Assembly (NCBI GenBank): GCA_038733315.1
Contig: JAVYPJ010000002.1
Span: forward strand, 160,001 to 224,000
DNA: 64,000 nucleotides
Origin: Candidatus Aenigmatarchaeota archaeon
Lineage (GTDB): Archaea; Aenigmatarchaeota; Aenigmatarchaeia; CG10238-14; SpSt-28
Reading direction: 5' to 3'
Below are positions 36,001-42,000 of this stretch, piece after piece (position 1 is the stretch's first letter; each line of letters begins with the position of its first letter). The position numbers are program-made.

Positions 36001-39000
36001 AATGTTTTGTAGTTTCCTCAAAACCAGCTCTAGCTAGAATACTCACTTTTCTCCCAGCAACACCATATCTACCTATTGGCATTATATCACCACTAAAACA
36101 CATAGTATCTACAATTAAAGATAAAAATCTTATGTTAACGTCTAAACCTTGTTGCTGCAAAGTTCTATATATTTCAAGAATTAACAAATTTCTTGCCGCC
36201 TCTATTCCAAAAACTTCTTTAACTTCGTGAGGATTGTTCGAATATGTATGAGTAATATCGACCCAAGGATATCTTATAACTTCTTTTAAATTGCTACCTT
36301 GCGTTTGAATTACCCACCTATTACCATCTTTCGTGACTATAGCAGCTTCTATTCCTTTAATACCTCTTATTGGAGTTTTAATGATTCTATCTCTTAAAAT
36401 TCTAAGCTCCTTAAACTCATATTCTTTCTTAGGCACAAGCACTATTTTTCCTCTACTTTTTTCGCACTCACAACTCTTGACTTTTTCCTTAAGTTTTTTA
36501 TATAGTTCTTCAAAATCATTCTTGTCATAAGGTATTACTTCCAAAGTGAATTCGCTCAAATTTATAACTACGCTCGCCAAATCCTCTAACTTTTTTTCTA
36601 TAATTTCATTAGCAATTTCATGCGCTTTTTCTTCTGTATTATATTCATTCTTCAAATAAATTGTCATAGAAGGAGAAGAAATTTCCTTTCTTGCATCAAA
36701 AAGCTCTATTAATCTTGGTAAACCTAAGGTTATCTTTAAACCAACAGTTCCAGCTAAGTGATAAACTCTCATAGTAGCTTGAGTTGCAGGTTCGCTAATA
36801 CATTGTGCAGCTAATATTCCTATGCTTTCATTCGGCTCAACTAAGCTCTTTATATATTCTTCATAAACTCTAAGTATTAATTTATCTTTTTTGTCCTCAC
36901 TCAAATTGAATTTCTTTACAGCATCGTCTATCTTTTTCTTCAAATTTTCTGGCAAGCTTTCGTATATTTTATAGATTTCTTGCGATTTCATATACATCTA
37001 TATCTCCACCTTCAACTTTATATGGATCTATTCCATCATCTAAGGCAATGAACTGAACTATATTATCATTAGCATCTCTAACAGTTAAATCTGTTTCTAC
37101 TCTTAAATCATTTAGAGCTCCTATAAACCTTCTTTCTAAATAACCACTCTGTCTAGTTTTAACTCCCTTATCCATTAGCGCTTCTCTCTGATTCATTATA
37201 TCAAAAAATGTCTCTAATGGTTTTAATCCGTAGAAATATCCATTAGAAATAAATCCCTTGGCCTCTAACCTTAAATCACCTCTTTCAAAGTGTGGGAAAG
37301 CCCTATTATAATATCCAATGCTTATTCTTTTACCCATAACTTTTGCTTGACCTATTAAACCGCTTATCTGGAAGAAGTTTACAAAGCTGCCTCTAGCACC
37401 ACTAGCAGCAAGAATAAAAAATTCTTTATCTTTTTTATCTTTAACCTCCTCTAATAATATTTCGTTAATCTTAGTTAATTTTTCATTAATTACTCTGTTT
37501 ATTAATTCTTCTAGCGTTTCTTCGCTTGTTCTTCCAATTAATAGCTTTAACTCGTTTTTATTAAACTTGTCTATTAACTCTTCAACTTTTTTATTTGCCT
37601 CTTTGAGATGCTCTTTTATTTTCTTTCTAGATTCTTCACTTATAGAATATTCAATAGTAGAAATGCTAAATCCACGCATCATTAGATAATAATTACTTAG
37701 CCTAGATATTTTTTCTATAAATTCCTTAGTATACTTTGGACCATATAATTGTAATATTTTATTCAATAGCTTTCCATTATCTCCAACCGCTCTACTATCT
37801 ATTGCACCACTAATTAACTTACCATTTTGTATTTTAACTATTCCTTCTTTATCGGCTTCCCAGCTTAAAGAGGATAATCTATTTTTGAATTCCATAGATA
37901 TGTTTGGTAATAGTAAGCTAAATATTTCTTTTCCGCTAAGCTTCTCCTTTCTTGGAATGTCTACCGATAAATCAACATTCCTTATTAGCTGCACAACATC
38001 TTTATAATCCAAAAGGTTTTCTCCATATGTTAACAAAAAGAGTCCAGAAATTTGATCATGTAATAAAGCGATTATTGGTCCACCATATCTCGGACTTCTT
38101 ATATGCTTTTCAACTCCCATCAAAATTTCTGCTTCAGCCATAGCTTCTACTGATTGTAAAACATGCAAATTCATTTCATCGCCATCGAAATCTGCATTAT
38201 AAGGAATTGTTGCACATAGATTTATTCTAAATGTTTTTCCATTTGTAATTCTAACTTTATGCGCCATAATGCTCATTCTATGTAAACTTGGTTGTCTATT
38301 GAACAAAACTATATCACCATTTTTCAAATGCCTTTCAACTATCCAACCTACACTTAACATTTTTGCTATTTCATTCTTATTCTTTTCGGTTATTTTTATC
38401 CTAATACCATCTGGTCTTATAACATAATTCGCTCCCGGCCACTCGTTTCCATTAGAAACTAGCTTCCTTATTTCTTCTATGTTTTCTTCATTAACAATAG
38501 TAGGAACAGTTAATTCTTTTGCTATCTCCTTAGGTACTCCTACTTCATTAATTTCTAAGAAAGGATCTGGAGAAACAACACTTCTAGCTGAGAAGTTTGT
38601 TCTTTTTCCTAATAAATTGTATCTGAATCTTCCCTCTTTTGTTTCTAATCTTTGAGCTAACGCTTTTAATACTCTTCCGCTTCTATGTCTTGCAGCTGGA
38701 ATTCCACTCAATTCATTATCGAAATATGTAGCAACGTGATATTGTAATAATTCCCATAAGTCCTCTATAACTAATTGTGGTGCTCCTAGTTCTATTGCCT
38801 CTCTCAATTTTTCATTTACTCTTATTATATCAGCTAATTTATGCGTTAAATCATCTTCACTTCTCTCTCCAGTTTCTAAGACTATAGAGGGTCTAATTAT
38901 TGGTGGAGAAACTAACAATAAACTTAATACAAAGCTTGTGGGATCAACCTTTATTCCTATTTTTTTAACGTCTTCTCTATCTATGTTAAGCAAAAATTCT

Positions 39001-42000
39001 CTTATCTCTTCTGGATTTAATTTTCTATCGTTAATCTTAAAAGTATATGGTCTAACAAATGTTACAGAAGGTTGCTTAGCCTTGCAATGCGGACAAACAG
39101 ATGGCAAAGATTTTAATACCTCTTTTAGTTTTGGTTTTTCCTCTTTACTCAAAAGTTTTCCGCAAGATTTGCAAAAAACTCTTAAAAGTATGTATATGTA
39201 CTTTATAAATAAAGGATGTAAAACAGGTTTAGCCAATTCCATATGTCCAAAATGACCGACACAATTAGTAAAATTACCAAAACATGTTCTGCATCTAACT
39301 CCGGGATCTATTGTTCCCATTCTTGGATCCATTATTCCACCCTCTATAGGAAATCCTTCTTCATCATAAACATCTATCTTAGAAATTTTTATTGGCGCGT
39401 ACTTCTTTATATCTTCAACAGTAAAAACTCTAAACTCTATGGCATCTATTTTTCTAAGAGTTTTGTTAATTATAAGTTTTGGATATAAATGCATTGAAAT
39501 TAATTCTTGGAATAATAGTTTGAACGCATATGACATTTCTATTTCATATACTTCGCTATCATCTTTACAATAAATACAATAATGTTTGTTTTTAGAAAAG
39601 TCTTTAATCGCTATTAAACCACACTTTGCACAAACTGGAACTAAAATCTTGTCACTATCAAACCTTTCCTTTAGTGTTAGTGCTGCTCCATGAGCTAAAA
39701 GAACATCTTTTTCCATCTCACCCAATCTTAATCCACCTTCCTTAGATTTTCCTTCAGTAGGTTGCCTTGTTAATAATGTTACAGGTCCTCTAGATCTTGC
39801 AAACCATTTATTTGAAACCAAATGATGTAACCTATAATAATAAATGTTTCCTATCAATATTTTTACTTCATACTTTCTACCAGTTACTGGATCATACATC
39901 TCTTCCCTTCCACTTTCTTCAAATCCATACTTTTTAAGTAATTCTACTATTTCCTTTTCTCTATCTCCCTCAAAAGCAGTTCCATCCATTATCTTTCCTT
40001 CTAAGGCAGCTATCTTACCAAACAAAATTTCGAATAAATGACCTAAACTCATTCTCGATGGAATACTATGCGGATTAAAAATTATGTCTGGAACTATTCC
40101 GCTAGAAGTAAACGGCATATCTTCATGCCTAATCGTAAGTCCAACTACTCCCTTTTGTCCATGTCTAGATGCAAATTTATCGCCTATTTCTGGAATTTTT
40201 AGCTCTCTTAAAACTATTTTTGCCAACTTATTACCTTCTGAAGAAGAGGTAATAAAAACTCTATCAACTATGCCCTGCTCACCACCTCTAACTTCTACAG
40301 AAGTTTCTCTCATGTTTTCTAAGGATACTATAAATTTATCTACTTTACCTAAGAATCTTAATGGCGACATTTTCCCAACTAAAACATCTCCCTCTTTAAC
40401 TTCAGTTTCTACCGAAACTATACCATCTATATCTAAATTTTTATAAGCTTCCTCACCCCTATAACCCTTTACTCCTGGCTGAGGTATACCTATAATTTCT
40501 TCTTGCCCACTAGCAAATTTTTTTTCTTCAGTTTCATAAGTTCTAAACATATAACTTCTAAACAATCCTCTTTCTATGCTTGACTTATTCATTACTATAG
40601 CGTCTTGCATTGTATAAGGATGAGAAATTATAGCAATTACAACATTACAACCATTTGGATGTGTATCAAATGGAAAAACTTTATAAGAAAAAGTTTGTAT
40701 GAGAGGAACCTGGGAATATAACATAACATGCCAAAATGAATAAGTTCTGCTTTTATATGCTAACGTTGGTATTCCTAAGGCTTGACCGCTCATTCTTGCT
40801 CCAAAATTAATTCTATCTCCTCTAGTATGTTCAACAAAAGGTATTAACGAAGCATGCAAACCTAACATAACCGCAGGATGCACCTCAAAATGCGTATAAT
40901 TATCCTTCTTTTCCCCATCTATTTCTATACTTATTTTTGTGATTTCCTCTTCTTCTGCATCTAAAAACTCTATTATACCATTCTTAAGTAAATCGCTAAA
41001 ACTGAAATTCCCATCTTTTATGTACTTCTCTAATTCATCAATTTTTTCAGAATTGATAAGCGGTCTTCTTATTCTTCCGCTATCTGTGGAAATTCTTACT
41101 TCATTCTTATAATCTAAAATACTTACATTTACCTGATAAGAGATTTCTCCCTTTCTTCTTGCACTTCTTATTTTTTCCACAACCTTTTCAGGTTTTGTTG
41201 TATATCCAAGAAGTTCTCCATCTAGAAATACTTTATACTTTTTAGCCTTCATAATTCTATTTTATAACTAATTTCATCTTCTATTAGTTTTTTTATTTTT
41301 TCTCTTTCCTCATCACTAACTCCAAAAGTTATTTCGCTAAAAATAGCTAGGTGTTTTCTCAAACCAATAGTTGGACCCTCTGGAGTTTCTACTAAGCACA
41401 ATTTCCCAAAATGAGTAGGATGCAACTCTCTAGCTTCAAAATGTTCTTGAGTAGATTTTAATGGTGAGCTAACCACTCTTAAATGTGTTAAAGTTTTGTT
41501 GAAGTTCGTTCTCTCTAATCTTTGAGAAGTTCCGGTCCTATTTCCAATCCATGTTCCCACAGCCATTACAGATTGCACTATATTACTAACAAAATTTGCA
41601 TCTATTACAGCATTTATTGGTGGCAAGCTACCTCTTTTAGCAAGTTTATGATAATTAAAAATCATCCTATTTATAACCCCCTGCTTACCTTTTAAAATTG
41701 TTCTAAATAGAATTTCAAAAAGTTCTCCAGCTAATCTAACTCTTTTGTTTGCATAATGATCTATATCATCTTCCTTATCCTTACCTAACGCAACACCAAT
41801 CATTCTTTCAACTATTTTTGCCAAAAATATAGCTTTGTTTATCCTATCTTTTTTTGTTTGACCTAAGTGCAACAGGAAATACTTATCCAAAATCATTTCG
41901 GCCCTTTCTTTTCTTAGCTTCTTTTGTGGTATTTTAAGATACTCACCGATTTTATCCAAAGCCTCTTCTTGAGTCGTAATAGGATATTCATAGAAATTAA

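Follow-up and report, generated by a model that had tools for sequence, protein, structure and literature searches.

The RNA polymerase operon in the window (by which we mean the whole stretch of 64,000 nucleotides that was analysed, from a contig of a Candidatus Aenigmatarchaeota archaeon) raises the question of whether two large subunits of an archaeal polymerase can be encoded, and made, as a single protein. The host is a tiny hot-spring archaeon. The gene at issue (36969..41252, on the minus strand like every feature given here) is an ORF of 1427 aa (162.7 kDa) with an ATG start and no internal stop, in which domains 4-7 of Rpo2 (aa 8-594) are followed by domains 1-5 of Rpo1N (aa 600-1407). 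A preliminary description of the locus had read it as one frame with Rpb2_4-7 and then Rpb1_1-5, and Pfam recovered the same domain coordinates, all above the curated cut-offs: Rpb2_4 at 8-66, Rpb2_5 at 85-126, Rpb2_6 at 134-504 and Rpb2_7 at 506-594, then Rpb1_1 at 600-880, Rpb1_2 at 882-1047, Rpb1_3 at 1050-1199, Rpb1_4 at 1229-1335 and Rpb1_5 at 1342-1407. The Rpo2C (B') part (39459..41252, aa 1-598, Pfam Rpb2_4-7) matches residues ~517-1114 of solved archaeal Rpo2 chains (E 1.5e-183), and the Rpo1N (A') part (36972..39452, aa 601-1427, Pfam Rpb1_1-5) matches residues ~5-890 of solved Rpo1N chains (E 6e-233). Between them lies a turn of four residues, K-T-L-R (39453..39464, aa 597-600), located by reading the DNA and by alignment with unfused relatives. 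The catalytic motif of Rpo1N, NADFDGD, is found at aa 1019-1025; the Rpo2C part has GDKFASRHGQKG at aa 357-368 and a C-terminal zinc ribbon (CAKC...CIYC) at aa 541-562, and all three are intact in the fused protein.

The remaining parts of the two subunits have genes of their own, as had also been described. Rpo2N (B'') is encoded upstream (41249..42769, 506 aa, Pfam Rpb2_1, Rpb2_2 and Rpb2_3), its TGA sharing bases with the ATG of the fused gene in an ATGA overlap, and Rpo1C (A'') downstream (35870..36997, 375 aa, Pfam Rpb1_5 at positions 55-265), sharing 29 nt with the end of the fused gene. The polymerase operon opens with rpo5 (subunit H; 42766..43011, 81 aa, RNA_pol_Rpb5_C, E 4.8e-21). 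Beyond rpo1C follow a gene of the L30e/L7Ae family (35626-35886), an ORF of 133 aa without a Pfam hit (35228-35629), and the genes of S12 (34781-35203) and S7 (34185-34781), those of L30e/L7Ae, S12 and S7 being identified as ORFs with Pfam matches. The genes follow the usual order in archaeal operons, H-B-A'-A''-L30e-(NusA)-S12-S7, and the 133-aa ORF sits at what we take to be the place of nusA.

Both halves can be assigned to archaeal subunits. Against the NCBIfam profile for A' (NF006336), aa 598-1425 score 1037.2 bits (cut-off 819) and cover positions 5-875 of 883. Against TIGR03670 (rpoB_arch), aa 8-597 cover the profile in full length (positions 1-597 of 599) with a score of 782.9 bits, narrowly below the curated cut-off of 811; on the grounds of its Pfam domains, its alignments with solved chains and its place in the operon, we treat the B' part as a divergent member of archaeal Rpo2C. 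The bacterial beta/beta' profiles score far below their cut-offs (NF007172, 305.8 versus 5372 bits; NF011417, 294 versus 4632 bits); the fused protein is not a member of that family and shares with it no more than the join's topology. In the host genome (G000, a bin that is 94% complete, and the only genome in which copy number was checked), Rpb1_1 (PF04997) and Rpb2_6 (PF00562) each have a single match, both inside the fused ORF, which is thus, by these profiles, the genome's sole source of either part.

All genomes compared are metagenome bins, and in one NCBI contig of the same 90% cluster the gene is broken into two pieces of 1129 and 296 aa, as might be expected of an assembly or binning artefact or of a pseudogene in decay. 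We give such an origin a negligible chance. Contigs from three other studies (runs X2, X5 and X9) span the junction with no gaps, and the 25 variant places listed for contigs of four runs comprise 21 synonymous and 4 conservative changes and no stops. The join is moreover common to 63 genomes of the phylum and to 60 junction-spanning protein clusters from NCBI, JGI, ENA and Logan, all 60 of which have both Rpb2 and Rpb1 domains, and the gene, its catalytic motifs intact, holds the genome's sole copy of two essential parts.

A continuous frame could nevertheless yield two proteins in the cell, either through post-translational cleavage at the linker or close to it, or through an internal, non-canonical translation start. 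Of the unfused loci, 80/82 have an in-frame ATG no more than 10 codons from the Rpo1N core; of the fused ones, 15/63 do, and a further 12 fused loci have a GTG or TTG near the old start without an ATG. Because those 15 keep the ATG, some lineages, the window's not among them, could still make free Rpo1N. Against two separate products, the window and 35 other fused genomes (36/63) lack ATG, GTG and TTG alike at this distance from the Rpo1N core (10 codons or fewer). Matches of at least 5 nt to the Shine-Dalgarno (ribosome-binding) consensus occur in 56/82 unfused versus 15/63 fused loci, and the longest in the window's junction stretch is 3 nt. Nor does the linker look like a conserved processing site, being hypervariable in sequence, with a length that differs by a few residues among relatives, and the model gives it, with high confidence, the shape of a tight beta-turn. 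We therefore consider two proteins quite unlikely, and infer from the missing internal start codon and Shine-Dalgarno-like motif that the gene would be translated as one uncleaved chain.

As far as can be judged from sequence, then, the locus probably encodes a genuine fusion (we put the probability at roughly 0.8), a single 162.7-kDa chain of B' and the whole of Rpo1N that would be the organism's only source of both. Supply of B' and A' would be fixed at 1:1, the two would join the assembling enzyme as a single chain, and the catalytic mechanism would stay unchanged.

The predicted structure around the join agrees with this reading. For aa 530-890, an AF2 model that drew on fused sequences alone and omitted the Rpo1C piece of the clamp reached a pTM of 0.79; its mean pLDDT was a moderate 78.5, and four stretches, all at a distance from the junction, came out disordered. 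In the model, the strands at aa 589-596 and 601-609 form a hairpin around the four-residue turn (block pLDDT 95 and 93). The top Foldseek match of the model is 3qqc_A (TM 0.74 over 367 columns), which aligns to aa 538-885 in a single stretch, gap-free at the junction (E 1e-99). Judged by the modelled hairpin, this match and the gap-free alignment, the junction fits the native clamp fold. In the clamp core, the final beta-strand of Rpo2 runs antiparallel beside the opening strand of Rpo1N, which would let a turn of about four residues connect them and leave the fold undisturbed; the short linker of the preliminary description has thus been borne out.

How such a join could arise is suggested by the unfused relatives, in which the site of this genus's Leu599 (codon CTT in the window, 39456-39458) is the stop of rpo2 and that of its Arg600 (codon AGA, 39453-39455) the ATG of rpo1N. 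In the ancestral operon, rpo1N would have been in frame with rpo2, its ATG following the rpo2 stop immediately, and one change of the stop into a sense codon would have joined the two frames; where the genes lay in different frames, an indel of one or two bases would give the same join. Pairs of genomes are consistent with both routes: GAT TAA ATG in unfused G114 and GAT AAA ATG in fused G120; GGT TAA ATG in unfused G015 and GGT AGA AAA in fused G002; 35 nt and another frame in unfused G067, and 36 nt in its fused partner G066. Loss of the anti-Shine-Dalgarno tail of the 16S rRNA was considered as a driver of fusion and rejected: most of the phylum's other genomes carry the canonical GGATCACCTCCT, both fused (e.g. 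G002, G047, G058, G100, G120, G126 and G153) and unfused (e.g. G015, G049 and G083). The 16S 3' end of G000 reads GGATCACTTAAT.

The fusion is spread widely within the phylum. With a 241-aa probe, 107 of 371 genomes match across the junction (a tally counted by hand), 63 of them free of stops and 44 interrupted by one or two in frame; the 63 fused loci, re-typed by local tblastn, have open frames of ~1420-1502 aa or 1910-1941 aa, shorter ones being cut by contig ends. The preliminary description had counted 29 stop-free matches among 121 Aenigmatarchaeota with the same probe and had proposed several fused lineages, including a long form with an unsplit Rpo2. The wider sample extends the count and agrees on both other points: fused loci are found in the whole genus, in 17 of 19 genomes of the family and in 10 of the 40 families of the phylum, and G002 has an ORF of 1916 aa with Rpb2_1-7 followed by Rpb1_1-5. 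The fused state was found in 0/70 and 0/251 genomes of two neighbouring phyla. Nanohaloarchaea were examined as possible fused relatives and set aside, all of their junction-matching loci, including those of two complete genomes, having stops or a frame change. Another genome of this phylum, G228, has a joined A'-A'' form and is a single TAG short of a complete single-chain B-A polymerase core.

On a polymerase tree of 142 genomes, the state of the junction changes at least 13-16 times, and sister species can differ (G066/G067, G069/G071 and G100+G106/G101). This, along with an unconstrained linker, is what would be expected if the fusion were neutral and without benefit: the chain ends already touch, loss of the stop costs nothing, and lineages drift both ways. 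Helicobacter with separated beta and beta' is reportedly viable, which we also count on this side. Against neutrality, large fused clades persist (8, 9 and 11 genomes). In the clade of the window, where 8/8 genomes are fused (support 100, junction identity 63-88%), the B'-A' fusion seems to have persisted for long. Genes that abut in frame, and so offer the same one-mutation opportunity, occur in 40 of the 321 genomes of the two neighbouring phyla, none of them fused, and in 107 genomes of this phylum, 63 of them fused, a contrast that is a hint only, kin being non-independent. On balance we give neutrality a little less than an even chance. It concerns benefit alone and is compatible with a genuine fusion.

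More tentatively, the fusion may be favoured and not just tolerated, as it would in very small genomes hold dosage at 1:1 and have the clamp built co-translationally, a proposal that we find possible and rather doubtful. If it were true, the origins numbering at least 13, the persistent large clades and the absence from 321 neighbours would be due to selection for the fusion, and the split or fused state of polymerase genes would be a labile character shaped by selection and not a rare marker of deep phylogeny.

Literature searches aimed at a published description of an archaeal B-A' fusion found none. NCBI and JGI label the fused proteins of 1420-1460 aa plainly as 'subunit A'' only, an annotation gap in which the fused chain is hidden under the name of one of its subunits. 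Archaeal polymerase architecture would not be a matter of splits only, as both subunits of the active-centre cleft can apparently be one natural chain. Phylogenetic practice is affected as well: splits and fusions of polymerase genes have been argued, in the passages of Da Cunha et al. (2017, PMC5484517) that deal with them, to be rare enough to polarise the archaeal tree, and here one junction shows at least 13 state changes within one phylum. Assembly of the archaeal polymerase in vivo is described, in the part of PMC13556214 concerned with it, as modular, passing through an Rpo3-11-2'2'' intermediate and sensitive to subunit stoichiometry; the fusion would provide a natural test case, in which the Rpo2 and Rpo1 modules would be unable to enter separately. 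A practical use would be as a source of ready-made linkers for a single-chain recombinant archaeal polymerase.

The natural B'-A' chain has parallels in an engineered Pyrococcus clamp and in the beta-beta' of Helicobacter. The former, crystallised as PDB 3QQC, is a P. furiosus B-A'-A'' construct able to fold and to bind Spt4/5 (Martinez-Rucobo et al. 2011, PMC3094117); as its description there has it, the C-terminal part of B is likewise connected to the N-terminus of A' through a short linker. It differs in being man-made, in comprising pieces of the clamp only (B 1053-1115, A' 3-318 and A'' 334-371) held by Gly/Ala/Ser linkers, and, going by the same description, in not being a working polymerase subunit. 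Unsplit or secondarily fused Rpo1 (A'-A'') is recorded from Thaumarchaea, Bathyarchaea and Pacearchaeota in the sections of Da Cunha et al. (2017, PMC5484517) on that subunit. There too the split or fused state of an archaeal large-subunit gene is altered, but the junction lies within one ancestral subunit, and those events are called rare, in contrast to the at least 13 state changes of the B'-A' junction in one phylum. Orf6 of the yeast linear plasmid pGKL2 is Rpb2::Rpb1-like (Ruprich-Robert & Thuriaux 2010, PMC2919709), a single chain with an Rpb2-like part before an Rpb1-like part. According to the account given of it there, it is a plasmid-encoded protein of 982 aa, strongly reduced and divergent, with domains inserted at the junction, whereas both parts of B'-A' span their segments in full and have ordinary sequences. 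The natural parallel that had been proposed from the outset, the rpoB-rpoC fusion found in Helicobacteraceae and Wolbachia (Zakharova et al. 1999 and Lane & Darst 2010, cited through a passage of PMC7483510), has the same topology: in both cases the second-largest subunit continues from its C-terminus into the N-terminus of the largest, and the genes are adjacent in one operon and the genome's only copy. Here, however, the enzyme is archaeal, and the join takes in no more than the C-terminal half of Rpo2 and the N-terminal two-thirds of Rpo1, leaving Rpo2N and Rpo1C separate; and while the bacterial fusion arose once per clade, the B'-A' join appears to have arisen many times within a single phylum.

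The fused rpo2C-rpo1N gene (36969-41252, minus strand) is a single frame of 1427 codons with an ATG start and no internal stops. Rpb2 domains 4-7 occupy aa 8-594 of its product and Rpb1 domains 1-5 aa 600-1407, Pfam coordinates identical to those of the preliminary description, which had claimed a natural fusion of Rpo2C (B') to Rpo1N (A') in one 1427-aa gene. The archaeal A' model of NCBIfam matches aa 598-1425 with 1037 bits (cut-off 819), and the archaeal B model TIGR03670, covered at 597 of its 599 profile positions by aa 8-597, narrowly misses its cut-off (783 bits vs 811). 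The protein, of 162.7 kDa (67.9 + 94.8), retains NADFDGD (aa 1019-1025), GDKFASRHGQKG (aa 357-368) and the C-terminal zinc ribbon of Rpo2. The surrounding operon is the usual polymerase operon, in the order rpo5/H, rpo2N (Rpb2 domains 1-3), fused gene, rpo1C (A''), L30e-family gene, a 133-aa ORF, S12 and S7; the stop of rpo2N overlaps the start of the fused gene in ATGA, and rpo1C overlaps its end by 29 nt. The 133-aa ORF (35228-35629) matches no Pfam family at E <= 0.001; in archaeal operons, the gene between the L30e-family gene and S12 is nusA.

The fusion in the window is real and inherited and does not stem from an artefact. In the whole genome, which is 94% complete with 732,905 bp in 7 contigs, Rpb1_1 and Rpb2_6 each match only once, in both cases inside the fused ORF. 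The fused stretch is present in 14 DNA runs from 7 studies, all of them hot-spring metagenomes. Four of these runs were compared with the window at contig level, and three (X2, X5 and X9, not X10) cover the junction, that is aa 597-600, where the rpo2 stop and the rpo1N ATG stand in unfused relatives: the contigs of X2 (38900-39734), X9 (38983-39635) and X5 (all 1101 nt of the compared stretch) all span it with no gaps or indels. Among 25 variant places in the contigs of the four runs, 21 are synonymous, 4 conservative and none a stop. Both Rpb2 and Rpb1 domains are found in 60/60 protein clusters matching aa 540-660 (E <= 1e-20; 102 candidates), which come from NCBI, JGI, ENA and Logan and whose proteins, wherever named, are called "subunit A'". 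In the 90% protein cluster of P0001 (P0018, P0022), one 67,024-nt NCBI contig carries the gene in two pieces of 1129 and 296 aa, which may be a frameshift of that assembly or strain.

Of 371 genomes from the phylum of the window, 345 match a junction probe of 241 aa, 107 of them across the junction; among these 107, 63 read through without a stop and 44 are interrupted by one or two in-frame stops (tallied by hand, the 63 fused genomes being confirmed separately). Fused genomes occur in 10 of the 40 families of the phylum and make up 17/19 in the window's own, with patchiness even within genera (2/11 in g33 and 2/9 in g41). An unsplit Rpo2 is joined to Rpo1N in one clade of family f8 (11 tree rows) and in a few genomes of families f21 and f38; in the relative G002, an ORF of 1916 aa contains Rpb2_1-7 followed by Rpb1_1-5. 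Fused genomes were found neither in the phylum of Nanohaloarchaea SG9 (0/70; 12 matches across the junction, all with stops) nor in a sample of the phylum to which a 'Woesearchaeota' bin belongs (0/251; 28 such matches, all with stops).

Phylogenetic analysis (FastTree, 919 columns of Rpo2C and Rpo1N with the junction excluded) covered 142 genomes, namely all 63 fused ones and 79 of the 282 matching but unfused ones, the short rows of G091, G132, G029 and G150 being left out. The fused state takes at least 16 changes on this tree, 13 of which well-supported branches make unavoidable, with gains and losses of the fusion indistinguishable because this is an unrooted gene tree, built from these very proteins; shuffled labels take a mean of 46.8 changes, and none of 500 shuffles is as low as observed. 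All 8 genomes of the window's clade are fused (support 100), and there are further fused clades of 9 and 11 genomes. The B'-A' fusion has evolved repeatedly.

The unfused relatives also indicate how the genes were joined. Their rpo2 stop lies directly or a few codons 5' of the rpo1N ATG, often in frame. Three pairs of unfused and fused genomes (G114, GAT TAA ATG TTA GTA, and G120, GAT AAA ATG TCA GTA; G015, GGT TAA ATG ATA, and G002, GGT AGA AAA ATA; G067, with a 35-nt spacer in another frame, and G066, with 36 nt) therefore point to stop-to-sense substitution or a small indel as the routes. In the window, Leu599 (CTT) aligns with the old stop and Arg600 (AGA) with the old start. A further architecture occurs in G228 of this phylum (L231:1721-8587, minus strand), which has an unsplit Rpo2 (1099 aa), a single in-frame TAG and then an unsplit Rpo1, an ORF of 1188 aa that unites A' with A'' and has a complete Rpb1_5; it is one stop short of a 2291-codon single-chain core.

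The start signals of rpo1N differ between the two states. At 80/82 unfused vs 15/63 fused loci, an in-frame ATG lies no more than 10 codons from the Rpo1N core, while ATG, GTG and TTG are all absent there at 0/82 unfused vs 36/63 fused loci, the window and most of its genus being among the 36. Unfused relatives have GGAGG-like strings, such as AAGGAGGATTAAGATG in G130, a few bases 5' of the ATG, and a Shine-Dalgarno consensus match of at least 5 nt occurs in the junction stretch at 56/82 unfused vs 15/63 fused loci. Such decay is what would be expected once initiation of Rpo1N on its own ends. The fused chain may be cleaved; nowhere in the alignment, however, is conservation lower than in the linker, and this speaks against a conserved cleavage site. 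Judging from these sequence patterns, B' and A' are most likely made as one chain.

The native fold would, on structural modelling, tolerate this junction. An AlphaFold2 model of aa 530-890, with 51 fused homologues as input, has a mean pLDDT of 78.5 and a pTM of 0.79, the 10-residue blocks flanking the junction reaching pLDDT 95 and 93. It places the junction in a hairpin, with strands at aa 589-596 (LYPKLIIN) and 601-609 (KIDAIEFRV) and a turn at aa 597-600 (KTLR). The top PDB structural match is 3qqc_A (E 8e-29, TM 0.74/0.70, 367 columns), whose sequence aligns with aa 538-885 in a single stretch, gap-free at the junction (E 1e-99). As described in PMC3094117, 3qqc_A is an engineered Pyrococcus furiosus clamp of B 1053-1115, A' 3-318 and A'' 334-371 with short Gly/Ala/Ser linkers between them, which folded and bound Spt4/5.

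The window also holds the 16S rRNA gene (30261-31733, minus strand), whose 3' end (30261-30278) is GGATCACTTAAT, without the CCTCC anti-Shine-Dalgarno tail. It ends in GGATCACTCAGCTAGA in two other species of the genus and in GGATCACCTCCT in most genomes of the phylum, and the anti-Shine-Dalgarno may have been lost in the window's genus. Despite the missing tail, GGTGGAG stands 6 nt 5' of the rpo1C ATG at 36997. A tRNA of 86 nt (30085-30170) lies immediately downstream of the 16S gene, and a tRNA match at 46554-46659 is 106 nt long where the model has 71 positions, suggestive of an intron in this tRNA. G+C content is 52-55% in the rRNA region (30000-32000) vs 25-34% in the surrounding coding DNA, a pattern consistent with a thermophile whose genome is AT-rich; every run containing the fused stretch is of hot-spring origin.

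No description of an archaeal B-A' fusion came out of literature searches directed at one, which leave out most subscription journals. For archaea, the parts of Da Cunha et al. 2017 (PMC5484517) used here do not go beyond the A'/A'' split and secondary A'-A'' fusion, term these events rare and exclude Aenigmarchaea from the data set. The B'-A' fusion is of interest for polymerase assembly and bears on gene architecture as a phylogenetic marker, and it is mechanistically unsurprising. The yeast plasmid pGKL2 encodes a reduced Rpb2::Rpb1 chain (PMC2919709), and the bacterial beta-beta' of Helicobacteraceae and Wolbachia has the same join topology as B'-A' (PMC7483510, in the part citing Zakharova 1999 and Lane & Darst 2010), although the window protein falls outside the bacterial beta-beta' families (306 vs 5372 bits). 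B'-A' is a new form of an already known kind of polymerase fusion.
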